A stretch of 38,867 nt of DNA. Origin: Candidatus Woesearchaeota archaeon. Lineage in GTDB: Archaea > Nanobdellota > Nanobdellia > CAZGMV01. The position numbers and the translations under genes were made by a program. The DNA lies in NCBI GenBank assembly GCA_964526875.1, contig CAZGMV010000001.1, forward strand, positions 1 through 38,867. The letters are read 5' to 3'. Below are positions 64-37,646 of this stretch, piece by piece (positions within the stretch are counted from its first letter, which is position 1; each line of letters starts with the position of its first letter). The notes under the pieces were generated by a model. That model did no database searches. It was given only the letters and a program-made list of their open reading frames with translations, and was not told the DNA's origin.

Positions 64-1191
64 TTAATTTAAAGACCATTTCCTATCAACAACATCTTGA
101 GCTAACATAACTCCACCTTCATTAGGGTTTCCATACCATAATTCCCAGACAGCTCCTTTGTCAAAACATTGTCTTGGATAATAAAGTTGAACTCCTGAAA
201 GAATTCCTTCATCTACACACTGAACATTTCCATAAATAGTTCCATCATTTCCTTTTCCTGATTTATCTTTAGCTGTACAATCATCAAAATCTAAATAAAG
301 TACTAAAGAATCATCATTAGGACAATTGCCTAAGAAACATTGTTTTATTTCTTGGTCTGATAATGCTCTGTTGTAGATTCTTACTTCGTCTATTGTTCCG
401 TTGAAATAAAACCAATTAGCTCCATTATTAAACCTTCCTATCTCGGAAAAGGTTTGTTCCCAACTACTATTATCTTTTATTATCGTTTTTAATTCGCCAT
501 CAATATAAGATCGATACAATCCATTATTGTCTTTTGTAATAATTAAAGAAATTTCATTATTAACTAAAGATTGGGATAAACTAATATAATAATCTTTTAT
601 CCATCCTATTCCAAATGCCAATGACGTATTATTGTTTATTCTAATTCTAAACCCTTTATTATCAGGAGTATCAATAACAGAAGAAGTTGTAAATACACCT
701 CCATTTGTAGATAAAGTTTTTAAATTAAATATCCAAGTAATTTCGTTATTATAAGAAGGAAAATTATTTGTTTTTGTAGCTATATAACTATTTCCATCAA
801 ACAACATTGCTTTTCCATTCTTTCCCAAAACTAAACCATTAAACTCTTTCAAACCAAAACCTCCAGTGGCTTTTCTAACTAATAAATCAGTTGGTTTTTC
901 TGCTAAGAATAATTCCATTAAATTTTTTGAGCTATTTCCACATTTTAAGTATAAATTTGGAGTGTCTTTATCATTATCCCATTGTCCAATAATATTTAAT
1001 TCCTTTATTCTTACAACATTGTTTGGATCAATTTGGACATCAAATTGAATATTTACATTGCTTGGCGGTTCTATATTCTTATTTCCTTTCTTTGCAATGT
1101 TTGCTATTCCTACTACCAGTGTAATGGAAATAATGATTAAAGAGATGTACCAAATATACTCTGGGACAGCACTTTTCCTAAAGGATTTCAT
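64..1191 (-). CDS. Pilin-like (class III signal peptide) surface protein with an internal LamG/concanavalin A-like lectin domain
   Basis: The N-terminus MKSFRKSAVPEYIWYISLIIISITLVVGI has a basic n-region followed by a hydrophobic helix. The LamG_3-type hallmark FNGTIDEVRIYNRALSDQEI and the surrounding beta-rich segment are present. It is a paralog of 19263-19838 at both termini. Confidence 0.6.
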   Translation of the reverse strand: MKSFRKSAVPEYIWYISLIIISITLVVGIANIAKKGNKNIEPPSNVNIQFDVQIDPNNVVRIKELNIIGQWDNDKDTPNLYLKCGNSSKNLMELFLAEKPTDLLVRKATGGFGLKEFNGLVLGKNGKAMLFDGNSYIATKTNNFPSYNNEITWIFNLKTLSTNGGVFTTSSVIDTPDNKGFRIRINNNTSLAFGIGWIKDYYISLSQSLVNNEISLIITKDNNGLYRSYIDGELKTIIKDNSSWEQTFSEIGRFNNGANWFYFNGTIDEVRIYNRALSDQEIKQCFLGNCPNDDSLVLYLDFDDCTAKDKSGKGNDGTIYGNVQCVDEGILSGVQLYYPRQCFDKGAVWELWYGNPNEGGVMLAQDVVDRKWSLN

Positions 1192-2502: not shown

Positions 2503-3216
2503 ATGAAAAGAGAAAAAGCGGTTTTCTTTGATTTTGACGGTGTTATAATAAATAATTTCCTTTATATTCTGAATAGTTTTAGAGAGTTTATCAAGAAAAA
2601 GGTGGGAATAGATGATATTGATGAAGAAGATAAAGAATTTTTCCTCAGCAATCCTTTAGAAAGGACGATAGTTTATCTGAAAGATAAATACGGGATAGAG
2701 ATAAAAAGAGATAAAAAAGAAGCTAGGGAATATTTGAGTAAAATCTTGTTTGAAAAAGAAAAAAGATTTCTAAAGGAATACGAGAAAGAGGAATATTTCA
2801 AAGAATTAAAAGAGTTGTTAACAAAATTAAAAGAAAGTGGTTTTTATTTGGCTATAATCTCCAATTCTTTAAAATACAGAATATTGGATACAATTAATTT
2901 TCTAAAAATAAGTTGCTTTTTTGATGAAGTGTTAGCTGCAGAAGATTTAATAGAATATAAAGGAAAAATCGGCTATTTAAAGCAAATAAAGCCAAAATTC
3001 TCGGAGATCTTTTTAATAGATGATAGTATAAAAATTATAGAGGAGTATAGAAAGTGTAATGAATGTGAAGGCATTAAAGTAATCTTTTTCTTTAATCCTA
3101 TTCGTTATAAAAAGAACATTTTAGAAGAAGCAAAGAAAGAAGAAAAAGAAAATAAAGATAATTTATTTGTTGCAGAAAATTGGAAAGAAATAGAAAAAAT
3201 ATTATTTAAATCCTAA
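2503..3216 (+). CDS. HAD-superfamily hydrolase
   Basis: Motif I FFDFDGVII (DxDG), motif II AIISNS, and a late IDDS acidic motif. Confidence 0.6.
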   Translation: MKREKAVFFDFDGVIINNFLYILNSFREFIKKKVGIDDIDEEDKEFFLSNPLERTIVYLKDKYGIEIKRDKKEAREYLSKILFEKEKRFLKEYEKEEYFKELKELLTKLKESGFYLAIISNSLKYRILDTINFLKISCFFDEVLAAEDLIEYKGKIGYLKQIKPKFSEIFLIDDSIKIIEEYRKCNECEGIKVIFFFNPIRYKKNILEEAKKEEKENKDNLFVAENWKEIEKILFKS

Positions 3217-3265
3217 TTAAAAAGTAACAAAAAATATTTATAAAAACTTAGTTGTTTGGAATTAT

Positions 3266-3526
3266 ATGCCTGAAGAAAGATTTATCAGTAAGATCCTTTA
3301 TGGTAAAACAATTATTAGTAAAGCTGGAAGAAAGTTTGGTGAAGTAGGAGATTTAATTTTTGAAGTTAAAAGTGGAGAATTACTTTATATTGTAGTAAAG
3401 AATCCAACAGAATATGTAGAACATTTAAATGTTGATAAAGATCAAGAAGGAAATCCTTTAATTCCTTTTAGTTCAGTAATTGCAATAGGAGACTTTTTGG
3501 TTGTTAATGAAGAAGAAATAATTTAA
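3266..3526 (+). CDS. PRC-barrel domain protein
   Basis: 86 aa. The pattern GKTIISKAGRKFGEVGDLIFEVKSGELLYIVV is typical of archaeal PRC-barrel proteins. Confidence 0.55.
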   Translation: MPEERFISKILYGKTIISKAGRKFGEVGDLIFEVKSGELLYIVVKNPTEYVEHLNVDKDQEGNPLIPFSSVIAIGDFLVVNEEEII

Positions 3527-3527
3527 A

Positions 3528-4172
3528 ATGATTATTGTAAATTTTAAAAATTATAATCCAACAAAACACAACATTTTTTCTTTAGCTTTTTCTATTAAAG
3601 AATTGAATGAAAGATATGGAAAAATTATTTATTTAGCTCCACCAACTATTTTCTTAAACTTAATTAAAGATGTTCCTCTAATTAGTCAAGGTGCTTATCA
3701 CTCTTTTGGAAGCAATACTGGGAAAATAAGTGTCGAAACTCTAAAAGAATTCACAAAAATTGAAGGAGTTTTATTGAATCACTCAGAAAACCAGTTATTA
3801 TTCAATGATTTAATTAAAACAATAAAGAAAACAAATGAATTAAATTTGGATGTTATTGTTTGTGCGGATAGTAAAGAAAGTGCTCTCGCCCTAAACACCT
3901 TAAATAACTCCAAAGAATTAAAAATTGATTATATAGCTTATGAACCACCAGAATTAATTGGTGGAGATGTTAGTGTATCAAAGGCAAAACCGGAAATAAT
4001 TGAAGAATTAACAAATAAGATAAACAATTTATTAGTAGGGGCTGGAATTAAGACTAAAGAAGATGTAAAAAAGGCTTTAGAATTAGGAGCAAAAGGAATT
4101 TTAGTTGCTAGTGGTGTTGTTAAAGCTGAAAATCCTTACAAAATACTAGAAGAATTCATCACTTGTTTTTAG
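3528..4172 (+). CDS. tpiA: Triosephosphate isomerase (short archaeal type)
   Basis: IIVNFKNY start, LLNHSE catalytic His region, AYEPPELIGG catalytic Glu region. The 214-aa length is typical of archaeal TIM. Confidence 0.8.
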   Translation: MIIVNFKNYNPTKHNIFSLAFSIKELNERYGKIIYLAPPTIFLNLIKDVPLISQGAYHSFGSNTGKISVETLKEFTKIEGVLLNHSENQLLFNDLIKTIKKTNELNLDVIVCADSKESALALNTLNNSKELKIDYIAYEPPELIGGDVSVSKAKPEIIEELTNKINNLLVGAGIKTKEDVKKALELGAKGILVASGVVKAENPYKILEEFITCF

Positions 4173-7193: not shown

Positions 7194-7763
7194 TTATTCT
7201 AGTATCCTTAATTTTTTCATTTTTTCTAAGATTTCTTTTTTATATTCGCAGTAGAAAGTTTTGCAATTATTTAATATCTCAAGTAATAAATTTTTATCCA
7301 ACTTATTTAAAAGAAATTCTATATCTTTTTTATCCCTTTCATTAAATCTTATCAACTTATTCAAGAAAATAATTTCATCCACTAATTTTGGAATAATAAC
7401 ATCTCTAAATCTAATTTCTTCTATATAAAAGCAGTTAAATGGTCTAAAATCTATTTTAAGTTTTGTAATTTGATTACTTCTATTTAAAATCTCTAACTCA
7501 AACATATTTTTGTGTATAATCTTGTCTCTATAATCTAAGGCTACCTCATCTATCAAATTACTTAAGAAACTCCTAATAGTTTTTGTTTTCACTGTTGGAA
7601 GATATTTTAAATCAATGTCATAGGAAGGCCTATGCCAGTATTTCAACATTAAAGAAGTACCTCCTTCTAATGCAAGATTTTCTCTTAAATTAGAACTAAA
7701 TATCTTGATTATCAACTTTTCAATTATTTCAGAATGTGGAGAAGGAAGATATTTTTTAAGCAT
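7194..7763 (-). CDS. AbiEii/DUF1814-like nucleotidyltransferase (type IV toxin-like), short form
   Basis: Pol-beta NTase signature LALEGGTSLMLKYWHRPSYDIDL (GG/S...DxD). The C-terminal LNKLIRFNERDKKDIEFLL resembles the AbiEii K..R..RD..D motif. Confidence 0.5.
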   Translation of the reverse strand: MLKKYLPSPHSEIIEKLIIKIFSSNLRENLALEGGTSLMLKYWHRPSYDIDLKYLPTVKTKTIRSFLSNLIDEVALDYRDKIIHKNMFELEILNRSNQITKLKIDFRPFNCFYIEEIRFRDVIIPKLVDEIIFLNKLIRFNERDKKDIEFLLNKLDKNLLLEILNNCKTFYCEYKKEILEKMKKLRILE

Positions 7764-8455: not shown

Positions 8456-9241
8456 ATGGCTAGAAAATTAAAAAAATATTTAACTAAATTAGGTTATTTT
8501 AGTTTGGTTAGTTCTTATTTTGGAGGTATGGGTGTTTTAGGTTTAATTTCCTTGCCAGAAGTATTAAAAGATTATAAAGAAAAATCTAAAAAAATAATAG
8601 TAGGAGGTTATTTAGCTTTGTTAAGCTTTTCTACTACTTTATATGGTATGGTTAACACTATAAAAGGAAATACTTATTATGAACGTGTTGGAAAAATCGT
8701 AGATCAAATAATTAAAAAAGCTGAAAAAAAGGAAAAGGAGCTAGAAAACAAGTTATTATTGTATGCAAATAAAAAAGATAAAAATAATGAAGATGTTGTA
8801 ATATTTACTATTAAGAAAAAAATTGATGACGGGTTTTTCAGTTATGAGAAGATGTATAAGGTAATTGTGGAACCATTACCTTTTTATCAACCTTTAAGGG
8901 AAAATTTTGAAAAGTTTAAAGGAAATATTAAAGAAAAAGACGCACGAGCTATGAAATATTTCTATTCTTTACCACTCGTGAATTTGGTTGTTATTGCAGA
9001 TGATTTGTGGAATAGAAAATTTGGAAATTATAAAAAAGAAAAAGAAGAGTTAGAAAAAATGTATGAAGATTGGTTAAAAAAACAAGAAAATACATTTGAA
9101 GAATTGATAAAAAGAAAAGATGAGAACATTTATCATGTTATCTTAGAAGATAAATATGGATATCAACAAGATTCATTTTATACAATGGCTAAAAGTAAAG
9201 AAGACGCTAAGAAAAAAATTAAAGAATTATACAACATCTAA
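8456..9241 (+). CDS. Hypothetical membrane-anchored protein
   Basis: Two N-terminal hydrophobic helices followed by a K/E-rich soluble region. No domain recognised. Confidence 0.4.
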   Translation: MARKLKKYLTKLGYFSLVSSYFGGMGVLGLISLPEVLKDYKEKSKKIIVGGYLALLSFSTTLYGMVNTIKGNTYYERVGKIVDQIIKKAEKKEKELENKLLLYANKKDKNNEDVVIFTIKKKIDDGFFSYEKMYKVIVEPLPFYQPLRENFEKFKGNIKEKDARAMKYFYSLPLVNLVVIADDLWNRKFGNYKKEKEELEKMYEDWLKKQENTFEELIKRKDENIYHVILEDKYGYQQDSFYTMAKSKEDAKKKIKELYNI

Positions 9242-9801
9242 ATTTTTCTTTTTTTGCCTTTCTTTCTATTTAAAACTCTCTTAAATTCCTCACAACCACA
9301 TCTTGGGCATTGAGTTAATGTACTTTCATACACTAACAAACACCTCAAACACTTCTTCCAATACTTTCTTTTTTCCTTTATTCCTTCATAAGCAATAGGT
9401 ATTATTTCTAAATCCAATTCTTTAGCCAGATTTTGCATTCCATAATCATCAGTTGCAATTTTTATTTTTAAATCAACATCTTTATCTTCAAATCTTCTTT
9501 TCAACGTTTCTGCTAATGCCAAAATTTTTAAGTCAGTTTTTGACAAATTCTCTCCAAATTTTTCACATAATTTTTTAACAAACTTAAAAGAATTTTCACT
9601 TGGTTTATCGACGAAATATTCTAAAGAAGCCAATTTAAACAAAGTTTCATAGTCTTTAATTTCATTAATAACTTCAGGAACTGTCCACAACTCACCAAAT
9701 TGGGTTAAATAAGGAAGTTGGCCATGAATCAAAGAAGAAGTATCAAAAATAACAATTTCTTTTTTTTCTCTGTTCTTTTCAATTCCTTTAATTCTTTTCA
9801 C
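9238..9801 (-). CDS. nob1: PIN-domain endonuclease with C-terminal zinc ribbon (Nob1-like)
   Basis: PIN acidic motifs (VIFDTSSLI, TVPEVINEI, ATDDYGMQN) plus CLRC...CPRCG. GTG start at 9801. Confidence 0.65.
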   Translation of the reverse strand: MKRIKGIEKNREKKEIVIFDTSSLIHGQLPYLTQFGELWTVPEVINEIKDYETLFKLASLEYFVDKPSENSFKFVKKLCEKFGENLSKTDLKILALAETLKRRFEDKDVDLKIKIATDDYGMQNLAKELDLEIIPIAYEGIKEKRKYWKKCLRCLLVYESTLTQCPRCGCEEFKRVLNRKKGKKRKI

Positions 9802-16865: not shown

Positions 16866-18152
16866 TTATTCTCTTCCACTCATTTTTAGAATTAAGATAA
16901 ACATTAAATTCAAAAAAGGGATTAAAATATAAGTCCCTAATTTTGCAATTTTTTCTAAGATTGGAGAACTTGAGAAAGAACTTAAAATGGAAATAGTGGA
17001 TACAAATAACAAAGGAATTGCCACTACTAAAATAACATATAAATCACTAAAAACATCTAAAGAGCTAGTATATTTTTCTTTGTTATATTTATATTCTAAA
17101 ATAGCCTCTTGAGATTTTTGTTGTAAATAATTTGTTATATCACCTCCGCTTTTGGTTAAATAAACAATAGATCTTAAAATATCAGCCAATTCATCAGATG
17201 GTGTTTGTTCACCCACTAATTTCAAAGCATCTGTTAGACTCATATTAAATTCTTCAACCAGACTAATAATTTTTTGAAATTCTTCTGCCAAATCTTTATA
17301 ATCTTTAGTTTCAGCAATCATTTTAATTACATAGTAAAAATTGATTCCTGAGGAACTAATAGCTGCCATGTGAATCAAAGCAAAAGGTAAATAAGCATTA
17401 ATTTTTCTTCTCTTTTCATTAAAGGAATAAAAAGGATAAGTTAAAAGGATCATAATAACTAAAACTCCTAAAAATGTTAAAAATAAAAGAGTTTTTTTAA
17501 AAAATTCTAAAGAGATCTTTTTCATAAAAAATAAAAAAGACAATGCTAGAAAAATAACGCTCAAATAAGAAAGGAGAAAAAAAGATAGAATATATACAAC
17601 ACTTAATAAATTTCTCTGAAAAGGAGTTAAATCAAATTTTCTCAAATAATTATAAATCCATAAATAAAAATCAGGCAATAAATTAAGGAAAAAATTAAAT
17701 AATTTGTCGAAAGATTTTAAATTAGTTAAGCTAATAGCTTTCCTTACCTTTCTTTTCTTTTTTTCTTTGGATATAAAATCTTTAACATCTTTTCTTTTTT
17801 TAGAATTTTTCTCTTTCAATTTTTGGTGTAGTTTTCTTTTTATGATTATTTTATCTCCTAAAAAACGATTTATTTGTTTAGCTCGATTTTCTCTTTTTAA
17901 TTTATAATAATGGCTAATTACAGGAATATTTGAATTAGCTAATTTATGTTCTTTTTTATATTTTTCAATTAGGGAAAGGATTTTTGTAATATGGTTCGTT
18001 AATAAAATAATTTCATTTTTTAATTCCAAATACTCTTCTCTAGTATAATAACCCTTCTTAAATTTTAAATCTTCTACTTCTTTAAGTTTTTCTAAAATTT
18101 CTAGTTCTTTATTAAGAGCTTCTTCTATTTTTTTAATTCTTTCTAAATCCAA
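16866..18152 (-). CDS. Type II secretion system F-domain membrane protein (TadC/FlaJ-like platform) with N-terminal coiled-coil extension
   Basis: T2SSF core LPFALIHMAAISSSGINFYYVIKMIAE...MSLTDALKLVGEQTPSDELADILRSIVYLTKSGGDITNYLQ is flanked by transmembrane helices. The first ~150 aa are K/E-rich coiled coil. Confidence 0.65.
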   Translation of the reverse strand: MDLERIKKIEEALNKELEILEKLKEVEDLKFKKGYYTREEYLELKNEIILLTNHITKILSLIEKYKKEHKLANSNIPVISHYYKLKRENRAKQINRFLGDKIIIKRKLHQKLKEKNSKKRKDVKDFISKEKKKRKVRKAISLTNLKSFDKLFNFFLNLLPDFYLWIYNYLRKFDLTPFQRNLLSVVYILSFFLLSYLSVIFLALSFLFFMKKISLEFFKKTLLFLTFLGVLVIMILLTYPFYSFNEKRRKINAYLPFALIHMAAISSSGINFYYVIKMIAETKDYKDLAEEFQKIISLVEEFNMSLTDALKLVGEQTPSDELADILRSIVYLTKSGGDITNYLQQKSQEAILEYKYNKEKYTSSLDVFSDLYVILVVAIPLLFVSTISILSSFSSSPILEKIAKLGTYILIPFLNLMFILILKMSGRE

Positions 18153-18249: not shown

Positions 18250-19251
18250 ATGAATTTAAAGGATTATGTCAAAAAGTTAATAGAAAAACAAAAAAAAGAA
18301 AAAGTTAAAATTAATGTGTTAGTGCATAATGATTTGGATGGCACAGGTTGTTTGTATCTTATTAATAAAGTCTTTAAAAACGCCGAAGTAAATTTTAAAA
18401 AAGTAAGCTATTCAAAATTGGTTGAAAAATTTAATGAATTGGCTTTAGATTTAGAAGAAAATAATAAAGAATTACTTATTGTATGCGATTTAGGTCTAAA
18501 TAAAAGAATATTGGATAAATTAAACTTAAAAGCTGTAAAAGGAAAATTGTTATGGTTAGACCATCATATCTGGGATAAAGAATTAAAGAAAAAATTGTCT
18601 GAATATGGGGAAATTGTAATTAATAAAAAAACATGTGCAACAGGTATTGTTTTTAATTATTTTAAGGAATTTTTGAATTTTTCAGAATTTGATAAAAACT
18701 TGAAAGAAATCATTTGTGATTTTGATTTGTGGAAGTTAAAGAAAAAAATTAGTTGGAAATTATCTTTAGCTTTAATTAATTATAATCTAGAAAGATTTAG
18801 GAAGGAAAAATTAGAAAAAGGAATTCTCTTCGATGAAGAACTGGAAAAAAATTACTTGAAAAACTTGAGGAAATTTGAGAATTTAGTAAAAAAATTTGAA
18901 AAAGATGGAGAAGTTCTAAAAACAAAAAGAGGTAAATTATTAATGGCTTTTTCTAATAAAAAGAACATGATTTTTATTTCTCATTTGTATGAAATGTTGA
19001 AAAATAAATATGACGGGTTTATTTTAGTAGGAGAAAGTGGAAAAATTAGCTTAAGAGGAAAAATACAAGTAAATGATATTGCCCAAGAATTTGGAGGAGG
19101 AGGACATTTGAATGCCGCAGGTGGCTTAGTAAATTACTCAAAGCTACAAAAATTCTTAAATAAGATACTTTTTAAGCTAAGAATTTATCCAAAAAAGGAA
19201 GAAATCAAAAAAAGAATTTTAAAGATTACAGAAAAAGAAAATAAAAAATAA
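18250..19251 (+). CDS. DHH/DHHA1-family phosphoesterase (NrnA-like)
   Basis: VHNDLDGTGC (motif I), CDLG (motif II), LDHHIWD (DHH), GGGHLNAAGG (DHHA1). Confidence 0.7.
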   Translation: MNLKDYVKKLIEKQKKEKVKINVLVHNDLDGTGCLYLINKVFKNAEVNFKKVSYSKLVEKFNELALDLEENNKELLIVCDLGLNKRILDKLNLKAVKGKLLWLDHHIWDKELKKKLSEYGEIVINKKTCATGIVFNYFKEFLNFSEFDKNLKEIICDFDLWKLKKKISWKLSLALINYNLERFRKEKLEKGILFDEELEKNYLKNLRKFENLVKKFEKDGEVLKTKRGKLLMAFSNKKNMIFISHLYEMLKNKYDGFILVGESGKISLRGKIQVNDIAQEFGGGGHLNAAGGLVNYSKLQKFLNKILFKLRIYPKKEEIKKRILKITEKENKK

Positions 19252-19262
19252 TTTTTTAACTC

Positions 19263-19838
19263 TTAACTTACTGTAGTTTCATAAACTCTTGTACCTCCCT
19301 GAGCAGGATCTGAATAGAACAAGAACCACTTAGTACCTTTTTTAAAGCACTCATCACTTATATTCCAACTATCTTTTGTTACTTCAATACTTGAAAGTAA
19401 ATTATAAACACCTGTACCTTCTAGAACGAAAATTGCCTGGTCTACAACATAACCATCATCTTCAGGATTACAAATTTTTAATTGTGTGGAGTTTATTTTA
19501 CCGTCCTGTAACAATTTTAAACAAGTAACTTTTGCATATCGTGTTGGATCTTTTTCACATTCTAAATATAAAGCATTTAGATCACTTTTCTTAAAAGAAA
19601 CTTTTGGAGAAATTACCAATTCATCAATACTTACAGTATTTACTTTTCCTGCCACTGCCGAAATACTCATAGATGCTACTGTAAAAGGTGCTCCTTGTTT
19701 TACACTAGTTGCTTGTTTAGTTGATTTACTTGTAATACTGTTAATAACTACTACCAACCCTAAAGTAATAGCAATTAAAGAAACGTACCAAATATATTCT
19801 GGAATTGCCGCTTTTTTTATTTTTCTTTTTTGACCCAT
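19263..19838 (-). CDS. Pilin-like (class III signal peptide) protein, short paralog of 64-1191
   Basis: N-terminus KIKKAAIPEYIWYVSLIAITLGLVVVI and C-terminus ECFKKGTKWFLFYSDPAQGGT both match the LamG protein. Confidence 0.5.
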   Translation of the reverse strand: MGQKRKIKKAAIPEYIWYVSLIAITLGLVVVINSITSKSTKQATSVKQGAPFTVASMSISAVAGKVNTVSIDELVISPKVSFKKSDLNALYLECEKDPTRYAKVTCLKLLQDGKINSTQLKICNPEDDGYVVDQAIFVLEGTGVYNLLSSIEVTKDSWNISDECFKKGTKWFLFYSDPAQGGTRVYETTVS

Positions 19839-20880: not shown

Positions 20881-22773
20881 TTAAATTGCTATATCAAAAT
20901 TTAAATCATATTCTTTTAGACAACCTTTATATTTATTTTTGACGATAATCATTTTTTTCTCCAAAATCTTCTTTAGGACGTTTAATTTTTCCTCTATTGT
21001 TTTAATATCATTTAAAATTTCTTTTTTATTTAAAAATAAGGCGTTATGTAAATAAACTACAGAAACGCCTAATCTTGCCAAGACAACATCATCATAATTT
21101 TTCCAAAAGAGTTTTTTTTCTTTTAGTATTAACCTTCTAAAAATTAATTCACCTTTTTCACAGTTTATTTTATATTTTTCCGTTTTTGGAAATACATACT
21201 TTTTTGTCTTTTCTAAGATTCTCCTTTGAATTTCTTGTAAAAACCCTTTTATTTTTTTTCTATCTATTTTTTTATCTGAAAAGAAGAAAATAAAGAATTC
21301 GTCCCCTAAACCAGCTATTACAAATTGGTAAAGTTCTTTATTATTTTTTAAATCCTTGCTATTTTTTAAAAAAACATAATCATTAGCAGTCTCAAAGAAA
21401 GTGTTTATTATTTCATTATATATTTCATCATATTCGTTTGGAAATACATAAAAGTTAAATGCATTAAAACCATCAAGCTCTAAAAATGCTGAATCAACAT
21501 ATAAATGTTCAAAATCGTTATATTTAAAAAGACAATTTATAAAATTAACAATACCTTTTTCAAAGGTTCCTTCTTTACCATCAAGTATTAAATAAAAATT
21601 TCTTTTTCCAAATTTTATAAAAACATTTTTCAATACTTCTTCAAGATTCTTATTGGCAATTAAATAAAGCTGTCTTCTAAAAAAAGTAAAGGTTTTTTCA
21701 TTAACATGTAATTTATTTGTTAAAGGTATTGTTAAATTTAATATCTCAAGTTTTTCAACAAAATTATTTATTTCCTTAATTAATTTCTCTTTTACTTCAT
21801 TTACTTTTTTTAAATCTTTGATTTTTATATTCTCATCAAGATTCTTAATATCCCTCTCTATTTCCTTAGCATAACTCCTTAATTCGCTGTTTAAAAAAGG
21901 ATAAAAAGGTTGTATAACACTTTGAAACCATATTAGAAGATCCTTAAAAAAATCTTCAATTTCTTTTAATTTTTTATTATCCATTAACTCCAATTTAAAA
22001 TAATTCTCCTTTTTATTAATCATCGTGTTTATTTTTTCTTTTTTAAACAATTCTCCAATAACCAAAATTATTTCAATCCACAAGTAATAGGAAATCGCAT
22101 ATAACAAGAAAAATTCGTGTTCGTTTTTACTTTTAAAATATAAAGCTTTCGTTAATAAAGGGCTTTTCTTGACTTTTTTGTATAATTCTTTATAATCACT
22201 ACTTAAAACCTTTTCTTTTAATTTAAAATCTAATTTATTATTTAAGATACTAGACAATTCTTTTAAATCATTCTCAATTTCCAAATTTTTCCCCTTTAGA
22301 ATTTCTTGAATTTTACCACGTATTTTCATTAGGTTATTCTCTAAGATAATCTCCTTTGCAAATAATTCTTCTATGTCATCAATTTTCAGTATTTTTTCTT
22401 CAATAAATATTATTTTATTACTATTTTTTATTACTTTTCTCTCTATTTCTCCAATCTTATTCTTTTCCAGTGGTTCAGAAGTAAATGCTATTATTTTCCC
22501 ACCTGTCTCTAAAATATATAAGGATTTGTAATTTCTTAAAAGCTCAAATATTTTAGATTTTAACCTAGAACCTATTTCATAGCCGTATTTTTTATTTAAG
22601 TAAGTTAAATCAAGTGTTATTCCATATAAATAAATTGTCTCTTTTTTATTTAATTTGTTTAACACTTCTTTAGCCAATTTCAATAGCTCATTGTCTCTTT
22701 CATCTATTAACTTACTACCATCTGAATTCCTTGAAAATAAAATAGCAAATTTTTCAAATAAATTTATGTTCAA
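20881..22773 (-). CDS. Twin palm-domain (GGDEF/Cas10-like nucleotide cyclase fold) protein of uncharacterised function
   Basis: The N-terminal module is ITLDLTYLNKKYGYEIGSRLKSKIFELL...YILETGGKIIAFTS. The C-terminal module is FLELDGFNAFN...FVIAGLGDEFFIFFF...ARLGVSVVY, with GLGDEF encoded at 21295-21312. TTG start at 22773. Confidence 0.5.
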   Translation of the reverse strand: MNINLFEKFAILFSRNSDGSKLIDERDNELLKLAKEVLNKLNKKETIYLYGITLDLTYLNKKYGYEIGSRLKSKIFELLRNYKSLYILETGGKIIAFTSEPLEKNKIGEIERKVIKNSNKIIFIEEKILKIDDIEELFAKEIILENNLMKIRGKIQEILKGKNLEIENDLKELSSILNNKLDFKLKEKVLSSDYKELYKKVKKSPLLTKALYFKSKNEHEFFLLYAISYYLWIEIILVIGELFKKEKINTMINKKENYFKLELMDNKKLKEIEDFFKDLLIWFQSVIQPFYPFLNSELRSYAKEIERDIKNLDENIKIKDLKKVNEVKEKLIKEINNFVEKLEILNLTIPLTNKLHVNEKTFTFFRRQLYLIANKNLEEVLKNVFIKFGKRNFYLILDGKEGTFEKGIVNFINCLFKYNDFEHLYVDSAFLELDGFNAFNFYVFPNEYDEIYNEIINTFFETANDYVFLKNSKDLKNNKELYQFVIAGLGDEFFIFFFSDKKIDRKKIKGFLQEIQRRILEKTKKYVFPKTEKYKINCEKGELIFRRLILKEKKLFWKNYDDVVLARLGVSVVYLHNALFLNKKEILNDIKTIEEKLNVLKKILEKKMIIVKNKYKGCLKEYDLNFDIAI

Positions 22774-22824
22774 TTTTATTTATTTACAAAAATAATTTTT
22801 TAAATTTAATTTTTCTCTTTATTT

Positions 22825-23865
22825 ATGGGTATTAACTTAACAGAATTAGTTAAACCATTTAAAAAAGAAATTTCCTTGGAAGAGTTAAATGGGAAAGTCA
22901 TCGCAATAGATGCTTTTAACACACTATATCAATTCTTAGCAACAATTAGACAAATTGATGGAACACCTCTAATGAATAAAGAGGGTAAAATTACTTCCCA
23001 TTTATCTGGTTTATTTTATAGAACCATTAATTTAATTGAAAATGGAATTAAACCTGTTTATGTTTTTGATGGAAAAGCCCCAGAGTTTAAAAGAGAAGAA
23101 AGAGAAAGAAGAGAGAAAATTAAAGAAAAGTATAAAGAAAAGTTAGAAATAGCCAAAATGGAAGGAGAAAGAGATTTAAAAAAATATGCACAAGCATTAG
23201 CAAAATTAAATAATGAAATGGTTGAAGAAAGTAAAGAACTAATAAAGGCAATGGGTTTACCAGTTGTTCAAGCTCCTAGTGAAGGAGAAGCAGAAGCTGC
23301 TTATTTAGTTAAAAGTAATAAAGTTAATTTAGCAGCTAGTCAAGATTATGATTCTTTAATTTTTGGCGCTCCTTTCTTAGTTAGGAATCTAAATATTGTT
23401 GGAAAAAGAAAAGTTGCAAATAAAAACATTTATGAAGAAATAAAGCCTGAATTATTAGAAAGAAAGAAAATTTTAGAAGGTTTGAAAATTAATGAAGATC
23501 AGTTAATTGTTCTTTCCTTATTAATAGGAACTGACTTTAATCCAGGAGGAATAAGAGGAATAGGTCCAAAAAAAGCTTTAGAGTTAGTTAAAAAATTTGG
23601 AAATAATTTTGATTTATTATTCAAGTTTGTTAAATGGGAAGAAAATTTTTCAATTGATTGGAAAGAAATATTTAATTTTTTTAAGAACCCTCCAGTAATT
23701 GATTATGAGATTAAATTTGGAAAAGTTGAAGAGGACAAAATAATTGAAATTTTGGTTGAAAAAAACGATTTTTCAAAAGAAAGAGTTATTAAATATATTG
23801 AAATTTTAAAAAAACATATGAACGTTAAACAACAAAACGTTCTGGATTTTTTCAAAAAGAAGTGA
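22825..23865 (+). CDS. fen: Flap endonuclease 1
   Basis: MGINLTELV...IAIDAFNTLYQFL, SEGEAEAAYL, SQDYDSLIFGAP, LIGTDFNPGGIRGIGPKKAL. Confidence 0.95.
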   Translation: MGINLTELVKPFKKEISLEELNGKVIAIDAFNTLYQFLATIRQIDGTPLMNKEGKITSHLSGLFYRTINLIENGIKPVYVFDGKAPEFKREERERREKIKEKYKEKLEIAKMEGERDLKKYAQALAKLNNEMVEESKELIKAMGLPVVQAPSEGEAEAAYLVKSNKVNLAASQDYDSLIFGAPFLVRNLNIVGKRKVANKNIYEEIKPELLERKKILEGLKINEDQLIVLSLLIGTDFNPGGIRGIGPKKALELVKKFGNNFDLLFKFVKWEENFSIDWKEIFNFFKNPPVIDYEIKFGKVEEDKIIEILVEKNDFSKERVIKYIEILKKHMNVKQQNVLDFFKKK

Positions 23866-23866
23866 T

Positions 23867-25036
23867 TTAAAAATCTTCATAAGGAAGTAAATAAATAAAT
23901 AAAAAAGCAAAAACGACAATTAAAAGCAAAATAAATATAATCTTCCTTATATAACTTATTGTTTTTTCAAATTTCTTTTCTTCCACTATTTGTGGTTGGA
24001 AAGTATAAATTGTTTTATTTTCGTAAATAATTGTATAATTAGAGAAAGGGAGTTTTAGGTTAATTAAGTAATTACCTAACTCAATTTTTTTAGATTCTGT
24101 TTTATTGTTTAATTCGTATATTATCGTAATATTATAATCTCTATCGTAAGGATTTTTTAAAAAAACCTCGCTAATTTTAACTTTCTTTTGGAACTCGTCC
24201 GCTAAAGCGTAAAAGAATTTACTATAATTTAGGTTTATTCTTTTTTCACATAATCTTCCATCTATGTAAATCTTTAAATCAAAAATTCCTGCTGGATAAA
24301 AAGTTGGAAAGTCTATATAATAAAACCTTTCCTTTAAATAAGGCAACAAATCTGAATCAAAATACTTAATTTTAGGATTATAAACATTACCATCTTGATC
24401 CTTTATAATTAAATCAAACTTTAAATAATAAGGGAAGTTATTTTCTACTATCTGAACATCACAATAAGCAGGAGAAGGTTTTATTATTAAAAAATCCTTA
24501 AAAACCTTACAAAACCTACCATCACAAAGTTTTAAAGTTATTGGCAAAGCCCCTATTGGGTAAAATTTTGTTAAATTAATTTTGTTTGTTCCAGGATTTA
24601 ATTGAAAAACATCACTTCCTATTTTTAAAAAACCATTATATTGTGTAGTTATTGTTAAAACATTGTTTCCTGTTAATATCAATTCTTTTGGGGTTATTAC
24701 ATAAGCAATTTCATCATTAAACTTAATTTTTTTTTCTTCTGTTTTTGTTTTATTGTTTATTGTGTAAAACGCTTTTAAAATTACAGTTTCATTATTATTT
24801 AATTTTTTTATTGAAAAAGAACCATAACAACTATAAGCCGTTTTATTTAAAGGAATTACTTCTAGTTTACAACTATCAGGAATTGTTTTATTTTCGTAAA
24901 TCAAATAAAAAATTGTTAATGAAAGGGAATTCTCTTTAGTGTAGATTGCCAAATTAGAATTTAATGTATTTAAAACTAAGTTAAGTAAAATAAAAAAAGA
25001 AAAAAAAGTTAAAAATACCTTACTTTTTGCTTTCAT
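23867..25036 (-). CDS. Secreted, C-terminally membrane-anchored protein rich in N-glycosylation sequons (hypothetical surface protein)
   Basis: N-terminal signal-like helix and C-terminal transmembrane helix (IIFILLLIVVFAFLFIYLL). About ten N-x-S/T sequons by my count. Beta-rich composition. Confidence 0.45.
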   Translation of the reverse strand: MKAKSKVFLTFFSFFILLNLVLNTLNSNLAIYTKENSLSLTIFYLIYENKTIPDSCKLEVIPLNKTAYSCYGSFSIKKLNNNETVILKAFYTINNKTKTEEKKIKFNDEIAYVITPKELILTGNNVLTITTQYNGFLKIGSDVFQLNPGTNKINLTKFYPIGALPITLKLCDGRFCKVFKDFLIIKPSPAYCDVQIVENNFPYYLKFDLIIKDQDGNVYNPKIKYFDSDLLPYLKERFYYIDFPTFYPAGIFDLKIYIDGRLCEKRINLNYSKFFYALADEFQKKVKISEVFLKNPYDRDYNITIIYELNNKTESKKIELGNYLINLKLPFSNYTIIYENKTIYTFQPQIVEEKKFEKTISYIRKIIFILLLIVVFAFLFIYLLPYEDF

Positions 25037-25043
25037 TTATCTT

Positions 25044-25640
25044 TTAGCTTAATTCAACAATTAATGTCTTATGATCATAAATTTCATTACTTTCGCAATC
25101 ATCTGGAATATTATTTCCATTGTAATTACCTTTACATACATAAATTTTGAATATATAATTTCCCGCATTCTTACCTTTTGGCCCATTAACAATTAAAGCA
25201 TCTTTATATGTTGAAGCACTTTTAACAACAGTTGGCTTAAGCCATTGTAAAAACCATTTCTTTTTTTCTTCATCATTACAATTCCAATTAGGATCTCCAG
25301 TACTACTTACACAATTAATTGCCATGTAAAATGTTTGATCTTGATTGTCAAAATTTTGAACATAATAACCAATAGCCTGTACTTCCCCAATCTTTAATTG
25401 GATCTTGTCTTTAGCTAAAAAAAATCTAGCATTAGGATCCTCTACTACTAAAGAATTAATTGCTTGTTTTGTAATCTCATTCATTTCTTTTGTCTGTGAA
25501 GTCAAACCACCAAAGAAATTTTTAATCCAAGCAATTGCCAATATTAATAAAACAAAACCGATAGCTACCACTATAATCATATTTATTGGCAAAGACATTG
25601 ACTTTTTTATTTTCCCTTTCTTCTTACTTACCATTTTCAA
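25044..25640 (-). CDS. Pilin-like (class III signal peptide) protein with a Cys-containing globular domain
   Basis: N-terminus KKKGKIKKSMSLPINMIIVVAIGFVLLILAIAWI. Paired cysteines follow (NCVSSTGDPNWNC, VCKGNYNGNNIPDDC). Confidence 0.5.
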   Translation of the reverse strand: MKMVSKKKGKIKKSMSLPINMIIVVAIGFVLLILAIAWIKNFFGGLTSQTKEMNEITKQAINSLVVEDPNARFFLAKDKIQLKIGEVQAIGYYVQNFDNQDQTFYMAINCVSSTGDPNWNCNDEEKKKWFLQWLKPTVVKSASTYKDALIVNGPKGKNAGNYIFKIYVCKGNYNGNNIPDDCESNEIYDHKTLIVELS

Positions 25641-25729: not shown

Positions 25730-26059
25730 ATGGGGGAACTTAATTTTAGTGATGCTTTTCAATATTTAGTTAACTCAGGTTTTATTGATTATGTTGTTTC
25801 TTTTATTTTAATTTTTACGGTTGTTTTTTATATATTAAGAATAATTCCTTTATTTAAAAAACATAAAGGAGCAAATCAACTAATTTCTTTTGCTATAGCC
25901 TTAATTTTTATATCCAATCAAAATTACGTAAGAGTTGTTAAGTATATAATCTATGATTATTCAACAATAATAATAACTACTCTTTTAATTGCTATGATTG
26001 TATCTTTTATTTTATACGTACAAGCAAATTATAGTAAAGGAGAAAACGAAGGTAAATGA
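25730..26059 (+). CDS. Small polytopic membrane protein (hypothetical)
   Basis: 109 aa with three hydrophobic helices. It is divergent from the pilin-like gene. Confidence 0.4.
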   Translation: MGELNFSDAFQYLVNSGFIDYVVSFILIFTVVFYILRIIPLFKKHKGANQLISFAIALIFISNQNYVRVVKYIIYDYSTIIITTLLIAMIVSFILYVQANYSKGENEGK

Positions 26060-26096: not shown

Positions 26097-26414
26097 ATGT
26101 CTGAAAATGGGAAAAAAGAAGAAAAACAAAGAGAAAATAAAGATCTTAAACCTTTTTTAGTAGGATTAGGTGTTCTTTTATTAGCATCTATTGCAATTTA
26201 TAATTATGACACTCAATTAAGTTTTACAAATGGTGAAGAAGGTAGTTTTTTATATAGAGCTTTTTATGCAATAGCAGGAGCACTAGGAGCTATTGCCAAT
26301 CTACTTAAAAAAGCTATTGATGAGATTACTTCCCATTTAGGAACAGAATTTTGGAGTGTTTTAGTTGTTTTAATAGTATTTGTTGTATTAGCAGTATATA
26401 TATCAAAAGAATAA
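26097..26414 (+). CDS. Small membrane protein (hypothetical)
   Basis: 105 aa with two hydrophobic helices. AGGTGG (26087-26092) lies 4 nt upstream of the ATG. Confidence 0.4.
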   Translation: MSENGKKEEKQRENKDLKPFLVGLGVLLLASIAIYNYDTQLSFTNGEEGSFLYRAFYAIAGALGAIANLLKKAIDEITSHLGTEFWSVLVVLIVFVVLAVYISKE

Positions 26415-26419
26415 ATAAA

Positions 26420-26923
26420 ATGTTACCAATTCCTGAAAGTTTGGCAAAAGTACTTTTCTCAATTGTTTTGTTCATTTTTTTAATGACTTTGTCTTATGTT
26501 GTACTAGGAAGTTTACAACTTCTAAAAGACAATAAAGGATTAAAAACAATATTAAGTTTTTCTTTCTCTTTCTTAATCCTTTATTTCATCCTTTTTTCAC
26601 CTTTTGGAAAATACTTTACAGAGGTTGTTTTACCTTTCGTTTTAATAGGATTTTTCTTTTTAGTTTTAGTTAGTGCTTTATTCCCTACTGTTGGAGTAAA
26701 ATTTGGGGAAAAAGAGGAAGAAAATTCTTTTATTTCAATAAATTCAACAATTATTATGTGGGCAGGCATAGCAATTTTACTTATTAGTATTCTAGCAGCT
26801 TTTAGACAAATGGGTTATAGTGTTGTCGACAAACTTCTAACACCTTCAGTATTTGGAGTTTTATTATTCTTCTTAATGGCTTATTTTGTTATACTAAGCT
26901 TCGAAAGTGAGGGGAGTAAATAG
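26420..26923 (+). CDS. Polytopic membrane protein (hypothetical)
   Basis: The in-frame ATG at 26420 (MLPIPESLAKVLF...) avoids overlapping the preceding gene; the track ORF starts at 26351. About five hydrophobic helices. Confidence 0.4.
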   Translation: MLPIPESLAKVLFSIVLFIFLMTLSYVVLGSLQLLKDNKGLKTILSFSFSFLILYFILFSPFGKYFTEVVLPFVLIGFFFLVLVSALFPTVGVKFGEKEEENSFISINSTIIMWAGIAILLISILAAFRQMGYSVVDKLLTPSVFGVLLFFLMAYFVILSFESEGSK

Positions 26924-36581: not shown

Positions 36582-37646
36582 ATGAATGATAATAAGGAAT
36601 TTTTTATAAGTTTCTTAAAAAAAATAGAAAAAAATGTTCCTTTAGATGCTTATGTAAGCTATTTTGCTAAAAAAATTAAAAATAAAGAGGAAAGGTTGTT
36701 TAAAGTGATTATCTCAACAATACTTTCAGCAAGAACAAAAGATGAAACAACAGCTAAAGTTTCTGAAAGATTATTTAAAAAAGTTAAAAATTGGAAAGAT
36801 TTAGAAAAAATTTCTTTAGAAGAGATAGAAAAATTAATTTACGGAGTTGGATTTTACAAAAATAAAGCAAAACAACTAAAAAAATTAGCTGAAAAAGTTA
36901 AAGAATTAAATTATAAAATTCCTGACACTTTAGAAGGTTTAACTAAACTACCTGGAATTGGAACAAAAACGGCAAATATTATTCTAGCAGAAGGTTTTGA
37001 AAAAGAAGGTTTAGCAGTAGATACACATGTTCATAGAATTGTTAATAGGTTAGGAATAATCAGCACTTCAACTCCTGAAGAAAGTGAAAAAGAATTAAAA
37101 AAGTTAATTGATAAAAGTAATTGGAGAAAAGTTAATGCTTTATTAGTTTCATTCGGAAGGCAAATTTGTAACGTAAAACCAAAATGTGAAATTTGTTTTT
37201 TTAAAGGAGAATGTCCTTATTATAAAAAAATAATGGGAATTAATAAAATTCTAAAAAATTATAACTTTAAAAAAATTAAAAAGAAAGAAATTAGCAACTT
37301 AAATTATCCAGGAACTTATGTTTTAAAAATTTATTTAAAAGAAAATAGTAAAATAAAAAATTGGAAGTTAAAAAAGGGTTTTTATTTTTATATAGGTTCT
37401 GCAAGAATGAAAAACGGATTAAAAAATAGAATTTCTCACCATTTAAAAGAAAAAGAAAGACTACATTGGCATATAGATTACTTAACAAACAATAAAAATT
37501 CGCAAATTAAAGAAATTTTTATTAGCGAAAGATTTGTTGAAAAAGAAGTAGCTAAAGAATTTTTAGAAATTTTAAAATATATAAAAAATTTTGGAAATAG
37601 TGATGATAAAAAGAACAAAAGCCATTTATTTTATTTAGAACCTTAA
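36582..37646 (+). CDS. nth: Endonuclease III (HhH-GPD, Fe-S) fused to a C-terminal DUF123 / GIY-YIG-like domain
   Basis: The Nth part has ILSARTKDE, LPGIGTKTANIIL, AVDTHVHRI and a Cys cluster CNVKPKCEICFFKGEC. The C-terminal part has GTYVLKIYL, GFYFYIGSA, NRISHHLKEKERLHWHIDYL and NFGNSDDKKNKSHLFYL, which match the DUF123 pattern. Confidence 0.8.
   Translation: MNDNKEFFISFLKKIEKNVPLDAYVSYFAKKIKNKEERLFKVIISTILSARTKDETTAKVSERLFKKVKNWKDLEKISLEEIEKLIYGVGFYKNKAKQLKKLAEKVKELNYKIPDTLEGLTKLPGIGTKTANIILAEGFEKEGLAVDTHVHRIVNRLGIISTSTPEESEKELKKLIDKSNWRKVNALLVSFGRQICNVKPKCEICFFKGECPYYKKIMGINKILKNYNFKKIKKKEISNLNYPGTYVLKIYLKENSKIKNWKLKKGFYFYIGSARMKNGLKNRISHHLKEKERLHWHIDYLTNNKNSQIKEIFISERFVEKEVAKEFLEILKYIKNFGNSDDKKNKSHLFYLEP

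Follow-up and report, generated by a model that had tools for sequence, protein, structure and literature searches.

The window, by which we mean the whole 38,867-nucleotide stretch analysed here (contig CAZGMV010000001.1, Candidatus Woesearchaeota archaeon; G+C content ~25%), carries a gene for a two-palm protein that is best described as belonging to a new, highly divergent GGDEF-superfamily family with a novel architecture. The reading frame and its TTG start, as put forward in an original prediction made from the DNA letters, are borne out by a mechanical list of open reading frames (ORFs) and by a metagenome copy whose gene call (Joint Genome Institute (JGI) metagenome 3300041922, P0001) uses the same start and gives a product identical to the window protein. 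The peptides quoted in that prediction are all present (YGITLDLTYLNKKYGYEIGSRLKSKIFELL...SLYILETGGKIIAFTS at amino acids (aa) 50-99, FLELDGFNAFN at 430-440 and GLGDEF at 488-493), and GLGDEF maps exactly to nucleotides 21295-21312. Upstream, the gene diverges from FEN1 (22825-23865, plus strand; identified by XPG_N and XPG_I) across a common spacer, as had been stated, and this A+T-rich spacer may have a promoter role.

Table 1. Features of the two-palm gene and its product, in window positions
Feature	Position	Strand	Details
Whole gene, two-palm GGDEF-like protein	20881..22773	-	630 aa, TTG start at 22773, stop codon included; mechanical ORF list
C-terminal long helix and short strand, aa 586-630	20884..21018	-	H590-614, E619-623
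C-terminal GGDEF-like palm, predicted catalytically intact, aa 421-585	21019..21513	-	domain model pLDDT 81.5; Foldseek top DosC 4zvf; hhalign P 0.0032
Family-specific β-meander insertion, aa 531-563	21085..21183	-	strands E531-538, E541-548, E550-555, E558-563
Predicted catalytic loop L489-G490-D491-E492-F493, counterpart of GGEEF	21295..21309	-	on β2-β3 hairpin between E483-489 and E492-499
C-module motif F430-L-E432-L-D434-G-F436-N437-A-F-N440 ... D449 .. Y452	21418..21486	-	invariant 19/19; predicted metal ligand E432, predicted guanine contacts N440/D449
All-helical scaffold, aa 131-390, ~260 aa	21604..22383	-	DSSP; pLDDT mostly above 80
N-terminal degenerate palm module, aa 45-130	22384..22641	-	DSSP E47-54, H56-63, H65-81, E84-90, E93-98, H104-114, E122-129; hhalign P 0.0015
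N-module hairpin G91-G92-K93, counterpart of G-G-E370 of GGEEF	22495..22503	-	lysine instead of metal-binding acid
N-module motif I-T-L-D55-L-T57-Y-L-N60-K-K-Y-G64-Y65-E-I-G68-S-R-L-K, aa 52-72	22558..22620	-	aligns to PleD DIDFFKKINDTFGHDIGDEVL
Intergenic spacer shared with FEN1, divergent	22774..22824	.	51 bp, ~94% A+T; sequence inspected

Each half of the protein is predicted to contain a palm domain. The full-length AlphaFold2 model, built with a 20-sequence alignment, reaches a predicted local distance difference test (pLDDT) score of 82.2 and a predicted template-modelling (pTM) score of 0.85. Secondary structure assignment by DSSP reveals the β1-α1-α2-β2-β3-α3-β4 palm core in both the N-terminal module (N module; strand E47-54 through strand E122-129) and the C-terminal module (C module; strand E423-434 through strand E531-538). 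Using the full-length model and a separately modelled C module as Foldseek queries, we found that diguanylate cyclases lead the full-length matches in the PDB (DosC 4zvf, E 0.049, probability 1.0), with Thg1-like proteins (probability up to 0.77) and weak Cas10 matches (7uzz_F, probability 0.47; 8s9x_C, probability 0.25) ranking lower. The DosC GGDEF domain also comes first for the C module (4zvf, E 3.9e-3, probability 1.0, template-modelling (TM) score 0.49 on the target). The top 50 matches of this module comprise 21 GGDEF domains, 13 class III cyclases, 5 Thg1, 3 AbiA, 5 MoaC and 3 other proteins, with palm cyclases or polymerases accounting for 42 of the 50. BFVD, an independent viral library, returned phage GGDEF proteins as the sole high-probability matches (0.87-1.0). 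The enrichment of these structural matches for one small fold class is overwhelming.

Profile-profile comparison places GGDEF specifically as the nearest family of both modules. The reference GGDEF profile was assembled from 12 diverse annotated diguanylate-cyclase domains from plasmids together with PleD and 6d9m; a PleD bait in a 5.8-billion-sequence database had returned close PleD relatives only, and nothing new came from a second query of the PDB. Aligned with hhalign, the C module matches this profile over 104 columns (score 24.5, P 0.0032, z 5.2) and the N module over 69 columns (score 23.9, P 0.0015, z about 5), both in catalytic register. None of 150 column shuffles reached the real score for either module and reversed alignments remained at background, although the profile statistics are in themselves modest, with P values of about 0.002-0.003. 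As a yardstick, the GGDEF and class III cyclase profiles, whose relationship is accepted, score 21.7 (P 0.011) when compared in the same set-up, below the GGDEF scores of both modules. The two modules score 13.3 and 11.9 against the class III profile (P about 0.27; shuffle mean about 11-12). Because the modules exceed the yardstick against GGDEF and stay at background against class III, GGDEF is the nearest family, and a class III cyclase identity, suggested by motifs resembling FxDIxGFT and K.IGDxYM, was rejected on its background hhalign scores. Direct profile alignment of the N with the C module is not significant (P 0.49), and any internal duplication is therefore too old to detect.

Conventional sequence searches are nearly silent on the family. 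Searches of the window protein against Pfam, NCBIfam, PADLOC and, by phmmer, the PDB gave nothing relevant, and neither the window protein nor any other member matched the class III cyclase family in Pfam (PF00211). No HD or zinc-ribbon family was detected by Pfam in the window protein and its sequence has no cysteine cluster. Among all 20 members, GGDEF is the only Pfam family matched by more than one (2 of 20, both below threshold, best E 0.09), and NCBIfam and PADLOC at E<=10 gave no recurrent match and no Cas10, CD-NTase or other defence hidden Markov model (HMM). The profile comparisons proposed with the original prediction were divided in outcome: the Pfam GGDEF threshold was not reached and Cas10, CD-NTase and class III models did not match, whereas the profile-profile match to GGDEF was obtained. 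A palm core in a confident model, GGDEF proteins in first place in both the PDB and BFVD and a profile match above all shuffles together uphold the palm/GGDEF fold that had been proposed for both halves.

The C module retains counterparts of the residues with which diguanylate cyclases bind metal and guanine. In PleD, the two Mg2+ ions are held by D327 and E370, and guanine is contacted by N335 and D344. Function depends on D327, N335 and D344, all of them essential, and the D344S exchange shifts base specificity in Hypr enzymes (PMC7288161, which documents metal, phosphate and guanine roles for the PleD residues). The profile alignment equates E432 with PleD D327, D434 with D329, N437 with K332, N440 with N335 and D449 with D344, and the loop L489-G490-D491-E492-F493 with G368-G369-E370-E371-F372. 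All 19 members that cover these positions have E432, D434, N440, D449, G490, D491 and E492 unchanged, and position 489 is L, M or A. The original prediction was right about the intact G-D-E-F of this module; its choice of D434, and of D55 in the N module, as the first metal-binding aspartate does not stand, since both correspond to PleD D329 and the D327 counterpart is E432, two residues away. Further along, the β-meander insertion has no counterpart in GGDEF alignments and carries two residues, K533 and R546, that are invariant in 18 of 18 members and through which it may bind phosphate. The C-terminal tail bears a weakly conserved K..KG motif (consensus IKxxxKG) that, on our own reading of the sequence, resembles the 'AK..GRN' end motif of GGDEF domains.

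The N module has the same register and has lost the catalytic acids. Here T53 aligns with PleD D327, D55 with D329, N60 with N335 and G91-G92-K93 with G368-G369-E370. The catalytic D-E pair is replaced (G-G-K-I-I), as had been noted, and both metal ligands are gone, with T53 and K93 standing in for PleD D327 and E370. The distance from D55 to G91 is 36 residues, close to the ~37 first claimed. All 19 members share D55, T57 and N60, and K93 is present in 18 of 19, with R in the remaining one, while the two hairpin glycines vary (G/S/A). In Cas10, Palm1 residues Asp256 and Ser258 and lysines bind the triphosphate of a second ATP, and the GGDD loop of Palm2 carries out the chemistry at the inter-palm cleft (PMC11734703); by analogy, the D55/T57/N60/K93 set may parallel this Palm1 site. 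An N module without either metal ligand and a C module with the full set bear out the proposal of one degenerate and one active palm in a single chain.

The scaffold between the two palms matches neither a protein family nor a PDB entry. Invariant residues are scattered through this region (E145, R152, S204, Y229, E246, K247, W282 and P350). It is helical, as predicted for the linker; the strongly hydrophobic helix that had been singled out (aa 219-245) is found in the window ortholog only, where the Kyte-Doolittle 19-mer value is 2.12, and is amphipathic elsewhere (-0.3 to 1.4). All other members have 19-mers of 1.7 or below. A transmembrane helix at aa 219-245 was rejected because of this confinement to the window ortholog, which points to a buried core helix and no conserved transmembrane segment, and the protein is predicted to be soluble.

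The family is rare and limited to AT-rich DPANN-type archaea. A phmmer search run exhaustively over 1.84 billion cluster representatives matched only 20 proteins (best E 1e-111; 25-45% identity), 17 of which are longer than 550 aa and contain both modules; the three shorter members are partial and come from short contigs. The gene is carried by 4 of 185,579 species-representative genomes, all four being uncultured low-GC archaeal metagenome-assembled genomes (MAGs), and a metagenome scan added one further locus. Two gene-bearing MAGs (L004 and L005) are titled 'uncultured Methanosarcinales archaeon', a label that looks doubtful given their ~26% G+C and DPANN-like gene content. A deep search with the C-module profile retrieved solely fragments of the same family, one of them labelled Nanoarchaeales; neither intermediate sequences nor further architectures came up. 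Precomputed Pfam domains and informative names are lacking for every member, and the literature searched holds no published description of the family. The viral contigs of IMG/VR contain no relative of the two-palm protein, on which ground a mobile or viral origin was rejected. The original prediction had staked itself on conservation of the motif residues, and these are invariant in 19 of 19 homologs covering them despite the 25-45% identity. The two-palm protein evolves faster than its neighbours, active-site residues excepted: within one clade (L003/L006/L021) it is 46-51% identical, versus 69-91% for the flanking genes (PfkB-like kinase, FlaJ-like and FlaI-like).

Two-palm genes reside among housekeeping genes and have no conserved partner. 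We compared five independent neighbourhoods, namely the window, L001, the L003 clade, L004 and L005. The window encodes FEN1, exosome Rrp4, a CCA-adding enzyme, an aMBF1-like helix-turn-helix protein, aIF2-gamma, aIF1A, TFE, a ThrRS with an archaea-specific editing domain and ribosomal protein S19e, and the neighbours across loci are likewise housekeeping genes (SerRS, SecY, ribosomal proteins, SRP54 and tRNA enzymes). The gene content of the window, its low G+C and the Nanoarchaeales label of one family fragment mark the organism as a DPANN-type archaeon. The five neighbourhoods have no conserved partner gene in common, which agrees with the description of the gene as stand-alone; a conserved operon partner or effector was rejected as a candidate on the same evidence. 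The 38.9-kb window contains no CRISPR array, cas, CARF or effector gene, as originally reported, and no SAVED, PilZ, EAL or HD-GYP gene. Beyond the window, cas genes are absent from the four other independent loci, and no CARF, SAVED or 2TM effector adjoins any copy. In the L003/L006/L021 clade a PfkB-like kinase gene, the two-palm gene and convergent FlaJ/FlaI/FlaH-like genes follow one another in kept synteny, indicating vertical inheritance.

Three of the five independent loci also hold genes of the type IV pilus/archaellum type, no more than a few kb from the two-palm gene. These encode FlaJ/T2SSF-like proteins, a FlaI-like ATPase, FlaH/KaiC-like proteins and pilin-like ORFs with class III signal peptides (window 16866-18152, 19263-19838 and 25044-25640, all on the minus strand; L001 12394-12951; L003 3617-7913; L021 4510-4923). 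One pilin-like ORF of the window corresponds in relative position to that of L001, at 32% identity. In bacteria, c-di-GMP (cyclic di-GMP) controls pili; the proximity seen here is suggestive and unproven, and could reflect a functional link or a coincidence in DPANN genomes that are rich in pilus genes. A lectin protein of 375 aa and Laminin_G_3/concanavalin-like type at 64-1191 (minus strand) shares a 118-aa stretch, 80% identical, with the pilin-like ORF of L001 (12394-12951). The stretch in common may represent a pilin-like module that is conserved and has been joined to a lectin domain.

Several other neighbouring genes deserve mention. About 1.6 kb from the two-palm gene, the window encodes a 333-aa DHH/DHHA1 phosphoesterase with an NrnA/GdpP-type fold (18250-19251, plus strand). 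Bacterial enzymes of the DHH/DHHA1 class break down pGpG, pApA and cyclic dinucleotides. No DHH/DHHA1 homolog was found near other family members, leaving the linkage unsupported. A diadenylate cyclase gene (DAC, PF02457) lies at 3041-3826 (plus strand) of L001, ~6 kb upstream of homolog P0002, whose genome therefore also has the capacity for c-di-AMP (cyclic di-AMP) synthesis. The sole conflict-type genes in the window, both more than 11 kb away (7194-7763 and 9238-9801, minus strand), encode an AbiEii/DUF6036-type nucleotidyltransferase, from a family of toxins of type IV toxin-antitoxin systems, and a protein with a PIN_6 ribonuclease domain. Downstream of FEN1 are membrane or secreted ORFs without a Pfam family (23867-25036, minus strand; 25730-26059 and 26351-26923, plus strand), among them a 389-aa protein with N- and C-terminal hydrophobic segments, and a 354-aa ORF at 36582-37646 (plus strand) fuses an HhH-GPD base-excision glycosylase domain to DUF123.

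The residue pattern suggests that the protein is probably a synthase of nucleotides or oligonucleotides that uses guanosine triphosphate (GTP). With modest confidence, we lean towards a divergent GGDEF-superfamily protein in which a dead N palm, a helical scaffold and a live C palm would form a single-chain pseudo-heterodimer that makes phosphodiester bonds from GTP-Mg and releases a signal product. The C palm would bind GTP-Mg, with E432 and D491/E492 contacting the metals and the alpha-phosphate and N440 and D449 contacting guanine, and would catalyse attack of a 3'-OH on the alpha-phosphate to form a phosphodiester bond. The dead N palm, through D55-x-T57, N60 and K93, would hold a second nucleotide without metal and face the live palm within the same chain, as in the Palm1/Palm2 pair of Cas10 and the C1/C2 pair of mammalian adenylyl cyclase. 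The product would be a di- or oligonucleotide that contains guanine (pppGpG, c-di-GMP or a related molecule, with longer or mixed products possible) and would act as an intracellular signal.

A number of observations weigh against this proposal. No single search passes a conventional significance threshold alone. Pfam GGDEF (PF00990) gives no match to the window protein even at E<=10, let alone at its gathering threshold, and HMMER profiles of the full-length family and of the C module retrieve no GGDEF chain, and no Cas10 chain, from the PDB sequences. No Foldseek match of the full-length or C-module model reaches E <= 1e-3, which makes each structural match individually marginal, and insertions keep the TM-scores low (0.49 on the target at best). 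The active site itself departs from the canonical one: the C-module signature is [L/M/A]-G-D-E-F, in which G-D-E is invariant and the first glycine of GG[D/E]EF is replaced, the first metal ligand is a glutamate (E432) in place of PleD D327, albeit a conservative swap, PleD K332 and R366 correspond to N437 and A487, and the 'D-x-LTGL-x-NRR' lead-in of GGDEF domains is absent. No PilZ, EAL, HD-GYP or other receptor or turnover gene was seen near any copy, and c-di-GMP has never been detected in an archaeon (PMC10249747).

The alternatives differ chiefly in how the two palms would be used. The protein could instead be a diguanylate cyclase of the canonical style that dimerizes via its helical region, so that two live C palms, each with a bound GTP, make c-di-GMP. 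The N palm would then be an allosteric nucleotide sensor, in the manner of the degenerate GGDEF domains of bacterial PdeA, GdpP, FimX and LapD, and would not supply the other half of the active site. The same fold, profile and residue evidence applies to this arrangement, including the intact guanine-contact pair N440/D449; all characterised GGDEF cyclases are dimers of live domains, degenerate GGDEF domains sense GTP or c-di-GMP (PMC7288161), and the long helical region could be a dimerisation stalk. However, no RxxD I-site lies upstream of the GDEF loop (sequence YQFVIAGLGDEF), the C palm lacks the coiled-coil stalk that directly precedes the domain in typical cyclases, the pTM of 0.85 suggests a compact single-chain assembly, and the invariant D-x-T and lysine of the N module look like a triphosphate clamp of the Cas10 Palm1 kind, and we regard this arrangement as rather unlikely, if still a serious contender. 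Alternatively, both palms might only bind nucleotides as a receptor or scaffold and synthesise nothing. Many GGDEF domains are non-catalytic receptors (PMC7288161), and the deviating first glycine of GG[DE]EF and the loss of the K332 and R366 counterparts would fit such a role. This is very improbable given that both metal ligands and G-D-E are strictly invariant at 25-45% identity, the pattern of a working active site, and that the N module of the same family displays the decay that follows once catalysis is lost.

Two further possibilities assign the protein to other branches of the palm superfamily. Instead of a signal synthase, it could be a nucleic-acid enzyme, Thg1/Thg1-like or another palm polymerase, untemplated or template-guided, that adds nucleotides to an RNA end, for instance that of a tRNA, with the large basic helical region binding RNA. 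Thg1, Thg1-like proteins and the AbiA polymerase are among the structural matches (probability up to 0.77), the palms of GGDEF, Cas10 and Thg1 have been evolutionarily unified (PMC12657218), the helical region is K/E-rich, and tRNA-processing genes occur nearby (the CCA-adding enzyme in the window; tRNA endonuclease, Trm5/TYW2 and TruD in L001). We nonetheless judge it improbable: GGDEF proteins rank consistently above Thg1 and polymerases in both probability and E-value, the invariant N440 and D449 match the GGDEF guanine pocket, and the neighbourhoods are generic housekeeping ones in which tRNA genes are not conserved partners. Lower still stands a defence synthase that has diverged from the Cas10/mCpol type, an orphan sensor akin to type III systems or to Panoptes whose nucleotide product would control an antiviral effector encoded at another place in the genome. 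The order of dead palm, helical domain, live palm and helical tail recalls Cas10 (PMC11734703), and a rare, patchy spread (4 of 185,579 species genomes, about 20 clusters), faster evolution than the flanking genes and the weak Cas10 structural matches (7uzz_F and 8s9x_C, probability 0.47 and 0.25) would suit a defence gene. Against this, none of the 20 members matches a Cas10, CD-NTase or defence HMM, the loop is GDEF and not GGDD, HD domain and zinc finger are missing, no CRISPR array or cas gene was found and no CARF, SAVED or 2TM effector adjoins any copy, and the gene is embedded in housekeeping surroundings with vertical synteny in one clade and is absent from viral contigs. The defence role that the original prediction had allowed for accordingly found no support.

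If the protein is active as a single-chain guanine-nucleotide synthase, it would offer a directly testable way to approach signalling by guanine nucleotides in Archaea, and in host-dependent DPANN organisms in particular. Signalling through c-di-GMP is regarded as essentially bacterial, nearly all diguanylate cyclases are from bacteria and no archaeal one has been characterised (PMC10249747, PMC8646023), and canonical GGDEF matches in archaeal MAGs are open to suspicion of contamination (PMC5847659); the stated rarity of GGDEF domains in archaea agrees with these reviews (PMC10249747, PMC8646023, PMC5847659). The present family differs from such suspect matches in its archaeal flanks (FEN1, aMBF1-like regulator, aIF2-gamma and archaeal ThrRS), its invisibility to Pfam and BLAST and its conserved predicted catalytic and guanine-binding residues. 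An active protein would also be a natural case of a GGDEF-type active site within a two-palm, single-chain layout linked until now with Cas10, and would be relevant to the origin of CRISPR polymerases from simpler cyclases. More speculatively, and with considerable doubt, the family could be a hitherto unrecognised archaeal lineage of the GGDEF/Cas10 palm radiation, with guanine chemistry of the GGDEF type and an architecture of the Cas10 type, that makes a guanine-based, possibly cyclic, di- or oligonucleotide messenger. This would be the first messenger system of its kind in Archaea, the family would link diguanylate cyclases to CRISPR polymerases as a living intermediate, and it might control the nearby type IV pilus-like apparatus. 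Independently of activity, the analysis delineates a new family of proteins, together with its motifs and a confident model, whose members current annotation pipelines call 'hypothetical'.

Comparison with known palm enzymes sets the family closest to the GGDEF diguanylate cyclases (PF00990; PleD, WspR, DosC and DgcZ). It shares with them the palm fold, the top structural match in two libraries, the catalytic register of both modules and, in the C module, counterparts of the key residues (D327 to E432, E370 to D491, E371 to E492, N335 to N440 and D344 to D449). Unlike these cyclases, the two-palm protein lies beyond Pfam/HMMER detection, has an LGDEF loop and a Glu for the first Asp, and lacks the D-x-LTGL-x-NRR lead-in, the RxxD I-site and any sensor, REC, PAS or GAF domain. 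It further differs in its ~35-aa β-meander (K533 and R546), in the arrangement of a dead and a live palm around a ~260-aa scaffold and in its archaeal (DPANN) host.

Cas10 (Csm1/Cmr2) likewise combines an inactive Palm1 and an active Palm2 in one chain with helical domains between and after them, a resemblance of architecture only. The two-palm protein is not a Cas10 member: it has no sequence-model match, its structural matches to Cas10 are weak and of low probability, it has GDEF in place of GGDD, GGDEF-type (guanine) base contacts and no HD, zinc finger or D4 domain, and its gene has no Csm/Cmr partners, CRISPR array or CARF effectors. Similar by description is mCpol/Panoptes OptS, also a stand-alone palm nucleotide synthase outside CRISPR loci. 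mCpol is structurally close to PleD and Cas10, is nearly devoid of the GGDEF motif while keeping the acidic hairpin, and consists of one minimal domain that works in oligomeric form, with genetic coupling to S-2TM-beta, CARF or SAVED effectors and CBASS (PMC12657218), whereas the two-palm protein has ~600 aa, two palms and no coupled effector at any copy.

Class III adenylyl/guanylyl cyclases (PF00211) are members of the palm superfamily as well and come second among the structural matches (13 of the top 50), and the F-L-E-I-D-G-F-N and I-L-G-D-E-F-F motifs of the family superficially resemble their F-x-D-I-x-G-F-T and K-x-I-G-D-x-Y-M. Mammalian class III (C1/C2) enzymes pair one degenerate and one active site. 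Both modules nevertheless score at background against the class III profile, and class III cyclases are not the nearest family. Degenerate GGDEF sensors (GdpP/YybT, PdeA, FimX, LapD and PelD) provide a parallel for the N module, which has lost the catalytic acids and keeps nucleotide-contact positions (PMC7288161). In these bacterial proteins the degenerate domain is fused to EAL, DHH or other outputs, while in the two-palm family its partner is a live palm, as predicted for the C module, in the same chain.

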